Notes under the pieces: model-generated
Databases searched by the model: none
Told to the model about the DNA's origin: nothing
The model's input: the letters and a program-made list of their open reading frames with translations, nothing else
Shown here: positions 2,596 to 33,085 of the stretch, piece by piece
Position numbering within the stretch: position 1 is the first letter of the stretch
Layout of the letters: each line of letters opens with the position of its first letter
Origin: Escherichia coli
GTDB lineage: Bacteria > Pseudomonadota > Gammaproteobacteria > Enterobacterales > Enterobacteriaceae
Reading direction: 5' to 3' (one strand)
Assembly (NCBI RefSeq): GCF_048403405.1
Contig: NZ_CP183129.1
DNA length: 64,000 nt
Position numbers and translations under genes: made by a program

Positions 2596-2601
2596 TTATG
2601 A

Positions 2602-2889
2602 CTAAAGCCCCAGCCACAACAACCATGCATCGCGGCGTTCTTTCGGTTGCTCAAAAAACGCTTTGCGCATGCCTTCGTTAAATGCTGGCAGATATACCCA
2701 GTTTTCTGATGCACGCGTCTTTACTGAACCTGGTTTCACAAAGTCAATTGTCGGTAGCTTTGCTGCGTCAATCATGGTTCTGACTGTGGATTCCTTGCGG
2801 CCGATCATCTTGGCGAATAGTTGATATGGCACCGCTTCAAGTGGATATGGTGCTACCTGAATGAAGCCCCCAAGCTCTGATTCGCTCAT
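2602..2889 (-). CDS. P2 Cox-like protein (excisionase / early-promoter repressor), 95 aa
   Basis: Recognisable similarity to phage P2 Cox (e.g. WVYLPA and WL.WLGL motifs) and divergent position next to the C-like repressor. Confidence 0.8.
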   Translation of the reverse strand: MSESELGGFIQVAPYPLEAVPYQLFAKMIGRKESTVRTMIDAAKLPTIDFVKPGSVKTRASENWVYLPAFNEGMRKAFFEQPKERRDAWLLWLGL

Positions 2890-2911
2890 TGTGGTAATCT
2901 CCCTAATTCGT

Positions 2912-2947
2912 TCGAATGGCTCAAAATGGCTTATATCGGCTTATTTG
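2912..2947. promoter_or_regulatory. three 10-bp-phased direct repeats (GGCTCAAAAT, GGCTTATATC, GGCTTATTTG) in the C/cox intergenic region: candidate operators
   Basis: GGCT recurs at 2918, 2928 and 2938. P2-type C repressors are known to bind direct repeats, so these are plausible operators; this is not demonstrated. Confidence 0.4.
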
Positions 2948-3002
2948 AGTGTTTTTATGTTTGTGCCCGATGTGGCATGTTGCGATGGAGGATATGCCCG
3001 AT

Positions 3003-3323
3003 ATGGCATCTTTGTCAAGCATGGGTGAAAAATTTCGCCTGATTCGTGAAGCAGAAGGTATGACCCGCCAGGAGTTTGCGGATTGTGTTGGGCTGCCTTA
3101 TGGGACGGTAACTAACTATGAGGTGAGGGGGAAGCAAGTAACAGAGGGTGCCTTACTTAAGGTTACGAAACACCCTAAATTTAAGAAATATGCTTATTGG
3201 TTATCAACAGATGAAACGATGCCGGAGGTTGGGCAAATTTCTCCGGCTCTCTCTCTTGATGGTTCCTGCAATTCGGAGGGAGATCGTGTTTCAACCGAAA
3301 CAATCCAAAAATTATCCCGCTGA
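3003..3323 (+). CDS. P2 C-like immunity repressor (HTH), about 106 aa
   Basis: Track ORF 2949..3323 trimmed to the ATG at 3003 (GGAGGA Shine-Dalgarno upstream). HTH region and C-terminal tail resemble P2 C (GLPYGT.., KYAYWL.., GQISPAL). Confidence 0.8.
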   Translation: MASLSSMGEKFRLIREAEGMTRQEFADCVGLPYGTVTNYEVRGKQVTEGALLKVTKHPKFKKYAYWLSTDETMPEVGQISPALSLDGSCNSEGDRVSTETIQKLSR

Positions 3324-3419
3324 GGCCAGAAAACTGGTTAGACCTGCTTTTTGTCTGGTCTGATTATTGCTGGAAAGAGGCTGGAGAAATTGTAGAGCGG
3401 TTCATTGGAGGGCTTCGCA

Positions 3420-4424
3420 ATGTCGATTAAGAAGCTCGAAGATGGTCGTTATTTGCTGGACATCAGGCCGAACGGACGCAAGGGAAAGCGCGTGCGTAAG
3501 GTATTTGACAAAAAATCGGTAGCGGTGGCCACTGAACGCTACATCATGGCGAACGCTGAAAAGCGGGAATATATACAGGGCTACCGTGATCGTCGAACGC
3601 TAAATGATTTGCTTGAGTTGTGGTGGATGTATCACGGCCAGCACAGGCGTAAGGCAGAAGAAGACCGAAAACAACTGCGCAACATAATCAATGAGCTTGG
3701 CGCTGATATGCAGGCTGTGGATCTTGATAAGCTAAAAATTATCGCGTGGCGTTCTCAAAAGATAGCTGATGGATTGAAACCGTCATCTGCTAACAGATAC
3801 ATGAATCGGTTATCCGGAATGTTTACCGTACTGAAGAAAATAGGCCTCTGGGATGCAGAACATCCGGTAAGGGGAATTTCTATTCTTTATGTATCTCCAC
3901 GAGAAATGGCTTTCCTGTCCCAGAAGGAAGTGGCGTTATTGCTCGATACACTGGAGGGCGATTACTGGCGTGTTGCGCTTTTGTGTTTAAGCACGGGGGC
4001 GCGCTGGAGTGAAGCCTGTAAGCTTCGTGGTGAACAGATAGTTCATAACCGTGTAACGTTTCTTGAAACCAAAAATGGCCGAAAGAGAACAGTGCCAATT
4101 TCGCAGGCAGTTTGTGAGGCGATCAAAACCAGAGAAACAGGCGGCTTGTTTGAGGTGAAGTACCGGGAATTCTGCTTGGCGCTGAAAAGAGTTAAGCCCG
4201 ATTTGCCAAAAGGCCAGGCTGCACATGTGCTGCGGCATACGTTCGCCAGCCATTTTGTGATGAACGGAGGAAACATTATTGCGCTTCAGAAGATTCTTGG
4301 CCACGCAACCATTCAGCAAACAATGGCATATGCACATTTTGCACCGGATTACCTGCAGGATGCGGTGGCCCTTAATCCGCTGAAAGGTGGCGTGAGTGTC
4401 CACGCAGTGTCCACGGGGGATTAA
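3420..4424 (+). CDS. int: P2-family tyrosine integrase (334 aa)
   Basis: Strong similarity to P2 Int across its length (MSIKKLEDGRY.., LCLSTGARWSEA, IVHNRVTF, HVLRHTFASHF, YAHFAPDYLQDA). Start taken at the ATG at 3420, 7 nt after GGAGGG. Confidence 0.9.
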   Translation: MSIKKLEDGRYLLDIRPNGRKGKRVRKVFDKKSVAVATERYIMANAEKREYIQGYRDRRTLNDLLELWWMYHGQHRRKAEEDRKQLRNIINELGADMQAVDLDKLKIIAWRSQKIADGLKPSSANRYMNRLSGMFTVLKKIGLWDAEHPVRGISILYVSPREMAFLSQKEVALLLDTLEGDYWRVALLCLSTGARWSEACKLRGEQIVHNRVTFLETKNGRKRTVPISQAVCEAIKTRETGGLFEVKYREFCLALKRVKPDLPKGQAAHVLRHTFASHFVMNGGNIIALQKILGHATIQQTMAYAHFAPDYLQDAVALNPLKGGVSVHAVSTGD

Positions 4425-4451
4425 TTTTATATAGCCTGAAACGGCTTAAAG

Positions 4452-4486: not shown

Positions 4487-4582
4487 TCTAAATGGTTATG
4501 TTGTTATCTGTATGATTATGAATGTTTTTTCAGATTAAACAGCAGTTTGCAAATGGGCGTTTGTTAATAAAGGAGCCTTAGA

Positions 4583-5740
4583 TTGTCAGAGACTGAAAAA
4601 TGGTTAAAAATCCTTGTTGATGAAAATATGCCTTATGCCCGCGACTTATTTAGCCGTTTGGGTGAGGTGACCGCGGTTCCCGGGCGTCCAATTCCCGTGG
4701 CTCAACTGGCAGACGCGGATGCGATGATGGTGCGTTCGGTCACGAAAGTGAATGAATCTTTGCTGGCAGGAAAACCCATTAAATTTGTTGGCACTGCCAC
4801 CGCGGGGACCGACCATGTCGATGAAGCGTGGTTAAAGCAGGCGGGAATTGGTTTTTCCGCGGCACCTGGCTGTAATGCGATTGCGGTGGTGGAATATGTT
4901 TTCTCCTCACTGCTGATGCTTGCCGAACGCGATGGATTTTCACTGCACGAGCGTACCGTGGGGATCGTGGGCGTTGGTAACGTTGGTCGCCGTTTACAGG
5001 CGCGACTGGAAGCGTTAGGGATTACAACCTTGCTTTGCGATCCGCCCCGCGCCGACCGTGGGGATGAGGGGGATTTCCGCTCGCTGGATGAATTAGTTCA
5101 GCATGCGGATATTCTGACTTTCCATACGCCACTCTTTAAAGATGGTCCGTACAAAACGCTGCATCTGGCGGATGAAAAACTGATCCGCAGCCTGAAGCCG
5201 GGAGCGATTCTGATTAACGCCTGCCGTGGCGCAGTTGTCGATAATACCGCCCTGCTGACCTGCCTGAACGAAGGCCAGAAGTTAAGCGTAGTGCTGGATG
5301 TCTGGGAAGGCGAACCGGAACTTAACGTGGAATTGCTGAAAAAAGTGGATATCGGCACGCCGCATATCGCAGGCTATACCCTGGAAGGTAAAGCACGCGG
5401 TACTACGCAAGTGTTTGAAGCTTATAGCAAGTTTATTGGGCATGAACAGCACGTTGCGCTGGATACATTACTGCCCGCGCCAGAGTTTGGTCGCATTACG
5501 CTGCATGGCCCGCTCGATCAGCCAACGCTGAAAAGGCTGGTGCATTTGGTGTATGATGTGCGCCGCGATGACGCACCGCTGCGTAAAGTCGCCGGGATAC
5601 CGGGTGAGTTCGATAAACTGCGCAAAAACTATCTTGAGCGCCGTGAATGGTCATCTCTGTATGTGATTTGTGATGACGCCAGCGCGGCATCATTGCTGTG
5701 TAAACTGGGTTTTAACGCCGTTCATCATCCGGCACGTTAA
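4583..5740 (+). CDS. pdxB: erythronate-4-phosphate dehydrogenase
   Basis: Translation matches E. coli PdxB. The TTG at 4583 is 7 nt after an AGGAG Shine-Dalgarno; the exact start is uncertain. Confidence 0.93.
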
Positions 5741-25641: not shown

Positions 25642-27786
25642 TTACTGCTGCTGTGCAGACTGAATCGCAGTCAGCGCGATGGTGTAGACGATATCGTCAA
25701 CCAGTGCGCCACGGGACAGGTCGTTAACCGGTTTGCGCATACCTTGCAGCATCGGCCCGATGGAGATCAGGTCGGCAGAACGCTGTACCGCTTTGTAGGT
25801 GGTGTTACCGGTGTTCAGATCCGGGAAGATGAACACGGTAGCGCGACCTGCAACCGGAGAGTTCGGCGCTTTGGATTTCGCAACGTCAGCCATTACCGCA
25901 GCGTCGTACTGCAGCGGACCGTCGATCATCAGGTCAGGACGTTTTTCCTGCGCCAGACGAGTTGCTTCGCGAACTTTTTCTACGTCGCTACCAGCACCAG
26001 AAGTCCCGGTGGAGTAGGAGAGCATAGCAACGCGCGGTTCGATACCGAAGGCCGCAGCGGAATCAGCGGACTGAATCGCGATTTCTGCCAGCTGTTCTGC
26101 GGTCGGATCCGGGTTGATCGCACAGTCACCGTAAACGTAAACCTGTTCCGGCAGCAGCATGAAGAACACGGAAGATACCAGGGAGCTGCCCGGTGCAGTT
26201 TTGATCAGCTGCAGCGGCGGACGGATGGTGTTTGCGGTGGTGTGAACAGCACCGGAAACCAGACCATCAACTTCATCCTGTTCCAGCATCAGCGTACCGA
26301 GAACCACGTTGTCTTCCAGCTGTTCGCGGGCAACGGTTTCGGTCATGCCTTTGTTCTTACGCAGTTCGACCAGACGACCAACATAGCTTTCGCGAACCAC
26401 TTCTGGATCAACGATTTCAATGCCTGCACCCAGTTCTACACCCTGAGACGCTGCAACACGGTTGATCTCTGCCGGATTACCCAGCAGTACGCAAGTTGCG
26501 ATACCACGTTCAGCACAGATAGCGGCTGCTTTAACGGTACGCGGTTCGTCACCTTCCGGCAGAACGATACGTTTGCCCGCTTTGCGCGCAAGTTCAGTCA
26601 GCTGATAACGGAACGCTGGCGGAGACAGACGACGGCTGCGCTCAGAAGTGGCAGTCAGAGAATCGATCCAGTCAGCGTTGATGTAGTTAGCAACGTATTC
26701 CTGAACTTTCTCGATACGCTCGTGATCGTCAACCGGAACTTCCAGGTTGAAGCTCTGCAGGCTCAGAGAAGTCTGCCAGGTGTTGGTGTTCACCATAAAT
26801 ACCGGCAGGCCGGTAGCGAAAGCACGTTCGCACAGTTTAGAAATGCGCGCGTCCATTTCGTAGCCGCCAGTCAGCAGCAGGGCACCGATTTCTACGCCGT
26901 TCATGGCAGCCAGGCAAGCGGCAACCAGCACGTCAGGACGGTCTGCGGAAGTCACCAGCAGAGAACCGGCACGGAAGTGCTCCAGCATGTGCGGAATGCT
27001 GCGTGCGCAGAAAGTGACGGATTTAACGCGGCGAGTATTGATGTCGCCTTCGTTGATGATGGTCGCATTCAGGTGGCGAGCCATATCGATCGCACGAGTC
27101 GCGATCAGGTCAAAGCTCCACGGAACCGCGCCGAGAACCGGCAGCGGGCTGGATTCTTGCAGCTTCGCCGGATCAACATTGTTTACTTTAGCTTTGGAAG
27201 AGTCGTCGAAAATCTCGGACAGATCCGGGCGAGTACGACCCTGTTCATCAACCGGTGCGTTCAGTTTGTTAACGATAACGCCGGTGATGTTGGTGTTTTT
27301 GGCACCGCCGAAGCTGTTGCGGGTCAGTTCGATACGCTCTTTCAGCTGTTCCGGGGTGTCAGTGCCCTGAGACATAACGAAGACGATTTCCGCATTCAGC
27401 GTTTTAGCGATTTCGTAGTTCAGAGACTGGGCAAACTGGTGCTTACGTGTCGGGACCAGACCTTCAACCAGAACGACTTCAGCGTCTTTGGTGTTAGCGT
27501 GGTAGTTTGCGACGATCTCTTCCATCAGCACATCTTTCTGATTGCTGGAAAGCAGACCTTCAACGTAGCTCATTTTCAGCGGTTCAGCGGCCGTCGTGGT
27601 GGAAGAGTTCGCACGCACGATAGTGGTAGTCTGATCGGGCGCATCGCCACCGGTACGCGGCTGAGCGATAGGTTTGAAAACGCTCAGACGAACGCCTTTG
27701 CGTTCCATTGCACGGATCACGCCAAGGCTGACGCTGGTCAGACCGACGCTGGTTCCGGTAGGGATCAGCATAATAATACGGGACAC
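25642..27786 (-). CDS. pta: phosphate acetyltransferase
   Basis: 714 aa, [22 protein letters not shown].. Confidence 0.96.
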
Positions 27787-33016: not shown

Positions 33017-33085
33017 GAGCCTGATGTCGCATCCGGCGCTTATTGCCTGATGTCGCATCCGGCGCTTATTGCCTGATGCGACGCA
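33017..33085. repeat. REP elements (GCCTGATGTCGCATCCGGCGCTTATT, two copies, plus a partial third)
   Basis: Direct repeat read from the sequence between convergent yfbS and yfbR. Confidence 0.85.

Follow-up and report, generated by a model that had tools for sequence, protein, structure and literature searches.

Predicted Cox boxes and a separate pair of predicted C operators in the lysis/lysogeny switch of a P88-like prophage of Escherichia coli

Introduction

Three GGCT repeats lie one helical turn apart between the divergent cox-like and C-like genes of an Escherichia coli prophage, and the locus raises the question of which of the two encoded proteins reads them. An earlier note on the window (by which we mean the whole 64,000-nucleotide stretch of contig NZ_CP183129.1 that was analyzed) had taken them for plausible operators of the C repressor, on the premise that P2-type C proteins bind direct repeats. 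The premise itself is supported by the literature (PMC1904268, PMC2995052); in P2 and Wphi, the operators flank the −10 element of the promoter Pe, with spacings of 22 and 34 bp, respectively (PMC1904268). P2 also carries cox-boxes, with the consensus TTAAA(G/C)NC(A/C), which are placed 10-11 bp apart and overlap the −10 and −35 elements of the promoter Pc, and on which P2 Cox forms a filament (PMC3936717). A literature search for switch studies on Xuanwuvirus or P88 returned nothing relevant.

Results

The prophage and the genes flanking the spacer

At its left end, the window contains the right end of a P2-family prophage, which is P88-like (Xuanwuvirus) and inserted at the start of pdxB. 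Positions 2600-3420 showed 99-100% identity to the phages PhiR44_2 and P88_4B11 (Xuanwuvirus), and the same range of identity was found in 294 complete E. coli genomes. The genes and translation signals of this region are the following:

2602..2889, minus strand: cox-like gene, 95 aa (Pfam Phage_Cox, 1.3e-22), predicted Pc repressor and excision factor
2889-2887, minus strand: cox start codon, the left limit of the spacer
2898..2902, minus strand: cox Shine-Dalgarno GGAGA, read from the sequence, 8 nt upstream of the cox ATG
2987..2992, plus strand: C Shine-Dalgarno GGAGGA, read from the sequence, overlapping the Pe −10 of the opposite strand
3003..3323, plus strand: C-type immunity repressor gene, 106 aa (HTH_3, phrog_147)
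3420..4424, plus strand: integrase gene (Pfam Int_N and Phage_integrase, PGAP), 3' of C in the lysogenic operon
4583 onward: pdxB, next after the integrase gene

The divergent arrangement and the 113-bp spacer (2890-3002) were as previously described, and the identities of both genes were confirmed by Pfam, phrog, and protein identity to P2 and Wphi. The cox-like product falls in phrog_272, 'Cox-like excisionase and repressor', and PGAP labels it as a Cox family DNA-binding protein. Among the characterized Cox proteins, it is nearest to P2 Cox (56% identity, E 9e-34), with 44% identity to Wphi Cox. The Shine-Dalgarno GGAGA is kept in all the relatives with window-type Cox, and that of C is kept as GGAG across all the C alleles. 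ATG 3003 was accepted as the C start, as it is the choice of PGAP and the sole ATG conserved across the C alleles with a suitably spaced GGAG; on the same grounds, ATG 3021 (the P88_4B11 annotation, giving 100 aa) and a GTG at 2949 were rejected.

Immunity classes I-VII of P2-type phages were reportedly defined by Karlsson et al. in 2006. Identity of the window's C protein amounts to 37% with P2 C, 42% with Wphi C, and 43% with the C of the UTI89 prophage PhiECO5, a class IX candidate, and assignment to class IX was rejected because of the last value. As C proteins within one P2-type immunity group are at least 95% identical (PMC3448106), these values of 37-43% indicate a separate immunity class, in line with the distinct immunity type that had been proposed for this prophage. 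This class is apparently unmapped.

Two sets of direct repeats share the spacer

The phased repeats and their immediate continuation are placed as follows:

2917..2926, plus strand: box 1, TGGCTCAAAA, first GGCT, predicted Cox box; aligns with the P2 box TGCGTTTAA in the Pc spacer
2927..2936, plus strand: box 2, TGGCTTATAT, second GGCT, predicted Cox box; covers the putative Pc −10 and aligns with P2 TGTCTTATAA
2937..2946, plus strand: box 3, CGGCTTATTT, third GGCT, predicted Cox box; aligns with the P2 box TGCCTTTTAG
2947..2956, plus strand: degenerate box 4, GAGTGTTTTT, with the GGCT core lost in the allele of the window

The GGCT repeats are present as reported, at an exact 10-bp spacing, since the motif begins at 2918, 2928, and 2938 within the continuous plus-strand stretch 2917-2946. 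The 64-kb window has a single exact copy of the pattern GGCT-N6-GGCT-N6-GGCT and, when one mismatch was permitted, two matches were found where 0.31 were expected. In dinucleotide-preserving shuffles of the 131-bp region 2890-3020, any 4-mer repeated three times at a 10-bp phase appeared in 12 of 5000, and at any period of 9-12 in 79 of 5000. Box 1 is conserved across three C alleles, box 2 gave the top score in the scan with the box weight matrix (12.3 bits), and box 3 is conserved in the relatives as [ACG]GGCTTATTT. The position of box 4 is occupied by TGGCTATTTG or TGGCTATTCG in type-B and most type-C relatives (the types are described below), and by TGGATTTTTC in locus L044. By eye and weight matrix, three clear boxes and a decayed one were recognized in the window and four boxes in the relatives, and neither approach recognized further box-like sequences beyond these four at the switch.

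The analysis of the same spacer also revealed a pair of 18-bp direct repeats, identical at 16 of 18 positions and 31 bp apart. This similarity was reached in none of 2000 shuffles, the best of which gave 15. The pair was absent from the earlier note, though it is much stronger than the GGCT repeats. It lies about a promoter found by the promoter scan on the minus strand:

3013..3018, minus strand: Pe −35, TTGACA, within C codons 4-6
2989..2994, minus strand: Pe −10, TATCCT
2964..2981, plus strand: predicted distal C operator, TGCCCGATGTGGCATGTT, just downstream of the Pe −10 and over the predicted +1
2995..3012, plus strand: predicted proximal C operator, TGCCCGATATGGCATCTT, filling the Pe spacer like P2 O1 and including the C start codon

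Pe (TTGACA-18-TATCCT) matches at 10 of 12 positions, and the predicted distal operator begins 8 nt past its −10. Both predicted sites share the motif TGCCCGATRTGGCAT. The packing of this segment is tight, the Pe −10 TATCCT being the reverse strand of the C Shine-Dalgarno GGAGGA. The 15-mer core of the operators has only the two switch copies in the 37-kb phage genome, where no extra copy that could serve long-range looping was found within two mismatches. Near-matches at window positions 33018 and 33044 were discarded, as they lie in host DNA and are REP-like in appearance.

Alignment with the P2 switch

In the curated P2 RefSeq record, the elements from C to cox run in the order Pe −35/C start, O1, Pe −10, O2, Pc −10, Pc −35, and cox start; the Pe −35 overlaps the C start, O1 is inside the Pe spacer, and the cox start is 18 nt past the Pc −35. 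The order in the window mirrors this switch element by element. The P2 half-sites (ATCTAAAC in two copies 22 bp apart) and those of Wphi (GTCACCAATA, two copies 34 bp apart) are both placed around the Pe −10, and the 31-bp spacing of the window's pair is within the 22-34 bp range of known P2-type operators. The promoters themselves are comparable, with TTGACA-17-TAGTAT in P2 and TTGACA-17-TATATT in Wphi.

At the other end of the spacer, P2 in the window's orientation reads ATGAAT-TGCGTTTAA-TGTCTTATAA-TGCCTTTTAG-TGCCCACATC, and its counterpart in the window is TCGAAT-GGCTCAAAA-TGGCTTATAT-CGGCTTATTT-GAGTGTTTTT, which gives a box-for-box alignment of the two arrays. This alignment places the following elements by positional homology only:

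2912..2917, plus strand: putative Pc −35, TCGAAT; aligns with the annotated P2 Pc −35 ATGAAT
2932..2937, plus strand: putative Pc −10, TATATC; positional homologue of the annotated P2 Pc −10 TATAAT

The P2 Pc −10 falls within the second P2 box, TGTCTTATAA. The putative −10 reads TATATA in the relatives, and the putative −35 is not conserved in the type-B relatives. The generic sigma-70 promoter scan that recovered Pe missed Pc. The P2 boxes are the reverse complement of the published consensus, which on the plus strand of the window reads TGNSTTTAA; when counted by hand, boxes 1 and 2 match it at 7 of 9 positions and box 3 at 5 of 9, with the core shifted to GGCT. By position and sequence, as far as these alignments go, the GGCT repeats are homologues of the P2 Cox boxes and not of O1/O2. 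The comparison with P2 and Wphi operator repeats that had been put forward as a check was thus borne out for the 18-bp pair, which shows the O1/O2 geometry, and went against the GGCT repeats, which match the cox-boxes instead.

Phased boxes follow Cox and Pe-flanking repeats follow C

Searches of IMG/VR with Cox and C gave 76 related loci, to which we added several phage records, and the spacers were sorted by type. Percentages are identities to the proteins of the window:

Type A (window type), 10 distinct spacers with intact flanking genes: Cox 96-100%, C 93-100%; GGCT boxes kept; both 18-bp repeats invariant
Type B (Shae_phiSM): Cox 97%, C 48%; four GGCT-type boxes; Pe-flanking TATTACATGTAACC and GATCACATATGATCC, 31 bp apart
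Type C (Chuche): Cox 94-100%, C 32-49%; same boxes; Pe-flanking TTTCTCAACTTAGAAA and TTTCTCATATGAGAAA, 24 bp apart
L044: Cox 78%, C 82%; GGCT boxes kept; Pe-flanking ATGCCACATATGGCAAG and ATGCCCGATATGACATT
L075 and L076: Cox 35-40%, C 75-76%; AGACC-type boxes every 10 bp, four copies; Pe-flanking TTCCACATATGCCACAT and TTCTCAACATGGCACAT

Within type A, substitutions and insertions of 1-3 nt were all found outside the two operator repeats. The GGCT boxes persisted over at least three C alleles whose products are 32-49% identical to the C of the window, their Cox proteins being 94-100% identical; such divergence of C means that these relatives are presumably heteroimmune. The type-B boxes are TGGCCCAAAA TGGCTTATAT AGGCTTATTT TGGCTATTTG, and the GGCT core is not fully constant, since it reads GACT in three of the type-B spacers, AGCT in Chuche, and TTGC in L036. 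The Pe-flanking repeats, on the other hand, were replaced in types B and C, in L044, and in L075/L076, and in the last two they are related to those of the window despite a Wphi-like Cox (55% identity between L076 Cox and Wphi Cox). L078, a related locus, has six copies of the AGACC-type boxes. Where Cox is about 50% identical to that of the window, TGCC- or GTGC-type boxes occur at an unchanged offset of about 30 nt from the cox start and in a 10-bp phase. The geometry of Pe is identical in the other types (TTGATT-18-TAAACT in type B and TTGACA-18-TATACT in type C). Four type-A prophages are altered in the predicted Pe hexamers, with TGTCCT or CATCCT as −10 or TTGATA as −35; the hexamer assignment could be slightly off, or these could be promoter-down copies. 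Collectively, the phased boxes track the Cox allele and the Pe-flanking repeats track the C allele.

The cox-plus-box module was found in 290 of 5426 complete E. coli genomes (about 5%) and the operator-plus-C module in only 225, which means that the two halves of the switch circulate separately and that at least 65 genomes pair these boxes with another immunity module.

Assignment of the repeats to the two proteins

These comparisons, which are of sequences throughout, make it likely that the locus is a two-promoter P2-type switch, in which the GGCT repeats would be Cox boxes over Pc and the 18-bp pair would be the C operators around Pe. The reading of the earlier note, with C bound to the GGCT repeats as phased direct repeats that control the switch, has in its favor the recognition of direct repeats by P2-type C proteins and the fact that the GGCT repeats are real and improbable by chance. 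They are also conserved in every prophage with the C allele of the window, as that reading had anticipated; nevertheless, this conservation does not discriminate between the two proteins, since these prophages share Cox too. The loci in which the two proteins part disfavor that reading. The repeats are equally conserved with C proteins at 32-49% identity, whose recognition must differ, and they are absent, with other boxes in their place, where C is kept at 75-76% identity but Cox has been swapped. Position points in the same direction, because the repeats lie at the cox-proximal end of the spacer over the putative Pc, 43-76 bp downstream of the Pe −10, whereas the mapped P2-type operators all flank the Pe −10/−35 and comprise two copies 22-34 bp apart rather than three at 10 bp. 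Moreover, a better candidate pair (2964-2981/2995-3012) occupies the place where operators are expected. We therefore hold it to be highly improbable that the GGCT repeats are C operators.

A dual use of the repeats, as Cox sites that C also contacts or spreads onto at high concentration to down-regulate Pc, would be compatible with P2 C activating Pc at low and repressing it at high concentration (PMC3448106), and box 4, the decayed one, is separated from the predicted distal operator by only some 7 bp. Yet 2917-2956 contains no C-site-like sequence, there being no extra match to the operator 15-mer in the switch at up to three mismatches, the boxes are common to presumably heteroimmune alleles, and P2 autoregulation has been attributed to O1/O2 and promoter interference, so this option seems very improbable too. 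Somewhat less remote, although still unlikely, is a phasing that needs no dedicated protein and would reflect only Pc and the DNA curvature caused by phased A/T tracts, inherited together with cox. Each box does end in an A/T run (CAAAA, TATAT, TATTT, and GTTTTT), which gives a 10-bp A-tract phase, the linkage of boxes to cox could follow from physical proximity alone, and the putative Pc elements overlap boxes 1 and 2. Against this, diverged Cox clades have their own phased core (GGCT; TGCC or GTGC; AGACC) at the same offset, a pattern that favors recognition of a specific sequence in co-evolution with Cox. In addition, the homologous P2 boxes are situated in the Pc region, to which the Cox binding site is assigned in the literature, a Cox protein_bind footprint is annotated at the P2 attP, and similar candidate boxes were found again at the att arm of the window.

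Candidate sites in the attachment region

The sites recognized near the attachment core are the following:

4396..4414, plus strand: Int arm-type sites of the P' arm, GTGTCCAC-GCA-GTGTCCAC, the reverse complement of the P2-type arm consensus
4428-4437, minus strand: candidate Cox box AGGCTATATA, box weight matrix
4442-4451, plus strand: candidate Cox box CGGCTTAAAG, box weight matrix
4607..4628, first pdxB codons: attachment core AAAATCCTTGTTGATGAAAATA, from the alignment of the window, the K-12 attB, and the P88_4B11 attP

The P2-type Int arm consensus is tgTGGaCa (PMC3448106), and the arm-type sites are at the 3' end of int, as in the P2 P' arm. The candidate boxes scored 7.2 and 7.3 bits and sit between the core and the P' arm, where the P2 record annotates a Cox footprint. 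No other 80-bp segment of the 37-kb phage genome is as dense in box-matrix matches as the P' arm stretch, which has four matches compared with three in many other segments. The att arms of Shae_phiSM and Chuche are near-identical to that of the window and the L074 record ends at the int stop, so these relatives offer no independent comparison. The evidence for Cox boxes at att is suggestive only, the margin of the matrix scan being small and not significant by itself.

Palindromic character of the predicted C operators

Both predicted C operators contain a pseudo-palindrome, GTGCC-N6-GGCAT in the distal site (2963-2978) and ATGCC-N6-GGCAT in the proximal one (2994-3009). The sequence ATGCCCGATATGGCAT has 12 of 16 self-complementary positions, and the two sites of the window range from 10 to 12 of 16. 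When the frames were picked by eye, every one of the eight sites (types A, B, C, and L044) gave a score of 10-16 of 16, compared with 0-6 for P2 and Wphi; a score of 10 is reached by about 2% of random 16-mers. The proximal site of type C (Chuche), TTTCTCATATGAGAAA, is a perfect 16-bp palindrome, and the Shae_phiSM type has GATCACATATGATC. The window's pair therefore departs from the non-palindromic half-sites of P2, which is a difference within the family and does not exclude the pair as P2-type operators. One symmetric dimer per site, with two cooperating dimers, is a model discussed for P2 C (PMC2995052); the pseudo-palindromes fit this model, but with both recognition helices predicted to be in specific contact. 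A tentative extension, which we consider possible rather than probable, is that each C 'half-site' of this P88-like lineage is a full 16-bp pseudo-palindrome bound by an ordinary symmetric dimer, and that the non-palindromic arrangement of P2 is a decayed version of it. If this were true, the P88-like phages would be natural intermediates for how P2-type repressors read DNA, and they would show the origin of new immunity classes by a swap of operator plus C against a constant module of Cox plus boxes.

Discussion

The locus is an otherwise ordinary P2-type lysis/lysogeny switch, and its elements suggest how it would work. Pe and Pc face each other, with predicted starts at about 2982 (minus strand) and 2944 (plus strand), and their transcripts would, as in P2, overlap, here by some 38 nt. 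The C protein produced from Pc in a lysogen would occupy both Pe-flanking sites and silence cox and the early operon; with the proximal site within the Pe spacer and the distal one over the Pe start, C would occlude this promoter. The two sites are 31 bp apart, i.e., three helical turns, and would probably each be bound by one symmetric dimer, with the dimers cooperating. Accumulating Cox, in turn, would polymerize on the boxes, one per helical turn, and cover the weak lysogenic Pc, which would shut off C and int, and at att Cox would direct excision.

This reading corrects the assignment of protein to repeat in the switch of about 5% of complete E. coli genomes, and gives precise operator predictions for an immunity class. 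It also presents the switch as two exchangeable halves, one with the Cox gene and its boxes and the other with the C gene, its operators, and Pe, an arrangement that indicates how heteroimmune variants could arise on one phage backbone. The palindromic character of the predicted operators has a modest bearing on the recognition of direct repeats by symmetric P2-type C dimers.

Among known systems, the closest to the GGCT array are the P2 cox-boxes, which likewise lie between the cox start and the C operators (predicted in the window), over the Pc −10 (putative in the window), in the same orientation and in a 10-bp phase; the P2 boxes TGTCTTATAA and TGCCTTTTAG resemble TGGCTTATAT and CGGCTTATTT of the window, and the adjoining Cox proteins are the 56% identical pair described above. 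The differences are in the core, GGCT in the window and TGNC/G in P2, and in number, three to four recognizable predicted boxes, whereas P2 has six or more over some 70 bp of footprint. A further parallel is found in the Apl sites of phage 186, where a Cox-like recombination directionality factor binds direct repeats one helical turn apart at both the switch and att (PMC7498355). The pR/pL switch of 186 differs in its use of a CI protein twice the size of C, together with CII, whereas the window encodes a P2-type C.

For the 18-bp pair, the nearest relatives are O1/O2 of P2 and Wphi, which are also two direct repeats around the Pe −10, one of them in the promoter spacer beside the C start. The 31-bp spacing is nearest to the three turns of Wphi, and the C proteins are homologous (37-42% identity). 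The repeats of the window are nonetheless longer (15-18 bp versus 8-10 bp), pseudo-palindromic, and different in sequence, and this last point again suggests a separate immunity class. The operators of C.Esp1396I, a protein cited as a structural relative of P2 C in the work on the P2 C structure (PMC2995052), offer the closest likeness in symmetry, since they are directly repeated palindromic sites with one dimer per site and cooperative binding; that protein, however, controls a restriction-modification system, and its sites are 15 bp apart from center to center, compared with 31 bp in the window.

Integration site and the pdxB junction

The prophage is inserted at the first codons of pdxB (window 4570-4630). 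The following features were annotated around this point:

4396-4414, GTGTCCAC twice in direct orientation, within the 3' end of the integrase gene int
within 4570-4630, the 22-bp attachment core AAAATCCTTGTTGATGAAAATA

Read on the opposite strand, the first of these sequences gives the P2-type Int arm-site consensus tgTGGaCa (PMC3448106), and a matching pair, ATGTCCAC-GCA-ATGACCAC, was found on the opposite attP arm of the closely related phage P88_4B11 (L081, about 26820-26840). At the junction, the GTG start codon of K-12 pdxB is replaced by phage TTA, and the phage contributes AAAGGAG together with an in-frame TTG (4583). As a result, the PdxB called by PGAP is 385 aa long rather than 378 aa. 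This substitute 5' end is already present on the phage attP.

Variation of the C/cox switch among related loci

When relatives combining the Cox boxes of the window with a type-C operator (the type of Chuche) were analyzed, we observed a repressor ORF of 195 aa, compared with 107 aa. It was found in L016/L073 (IMGVR_UViG_2826200407_000009), L037, L040, L041 and L042 (proteins P0001-P0019), and corresponds to two C-type HTH domains fused in frame and in tandem, with two HTH stretches recognized by Pfam. The N-terminal domain is of type C; the C-terminal domain either is of the window type, with 92% identity in L016, or resembles, as judged by eye, the type-B C of Shae_phiSM. This form is common, with single clusters accounting for 416 and 193 contigs. 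The loci carrying it contain only type-C sites in their own switch, and the fusion may be a dual-specificity immunity repressor. No mention of a tandem-fusion C repressor was found in the literature examined.

In some prophages with the C allele of the window (type A; L005, L012, L043 and L019), the hexamers of the predicted early promoter Pe were substituted, with both operator sites intact. The -10 element TATCCT was changed to CATCCT or TGTCCT (equivalent to window 2993-2994), and the -35 element TTGACA to TTGATA (equivalent to 3014). Such changes may weaken the promoter and so stabilise lysogeny; alternatively, our -10 assignment may be slightly off.

Host DNA at window 33018-33058 also contains two sequences close to the operator 15-mer, AGCCTGATGTCGCAT and TGCCTGATGTCGCAT, 26 bp apart. 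They look like REP-type elements and probably have no connection with the phage.

A different switch was observed in PhiECO5, a P88-like prophage of E. coli UTI89 in the serS-dmsA interval (L086, 35880-36000). Phased TG..GC boxes adjoin its Cox-family ORF (173 aa as annotated), and since the distal operator position is taken by a near-perfect 22-bp palindrome, TTCTTCACCATGTGGTGAAGAA, C sites of palindromic form may be general across the P88-like group. In another locus, L053 (IMGVR_UViG_2667528173_000001), Cox is only about 50% identical to that of the window, and the Pe region has two copies of AGATCTAAAC, each containing the P2 operator half-site ATCTAAAC. Here P2 immunity is apparently joined to a different module of Cox and boxes, a further case of module exchange.
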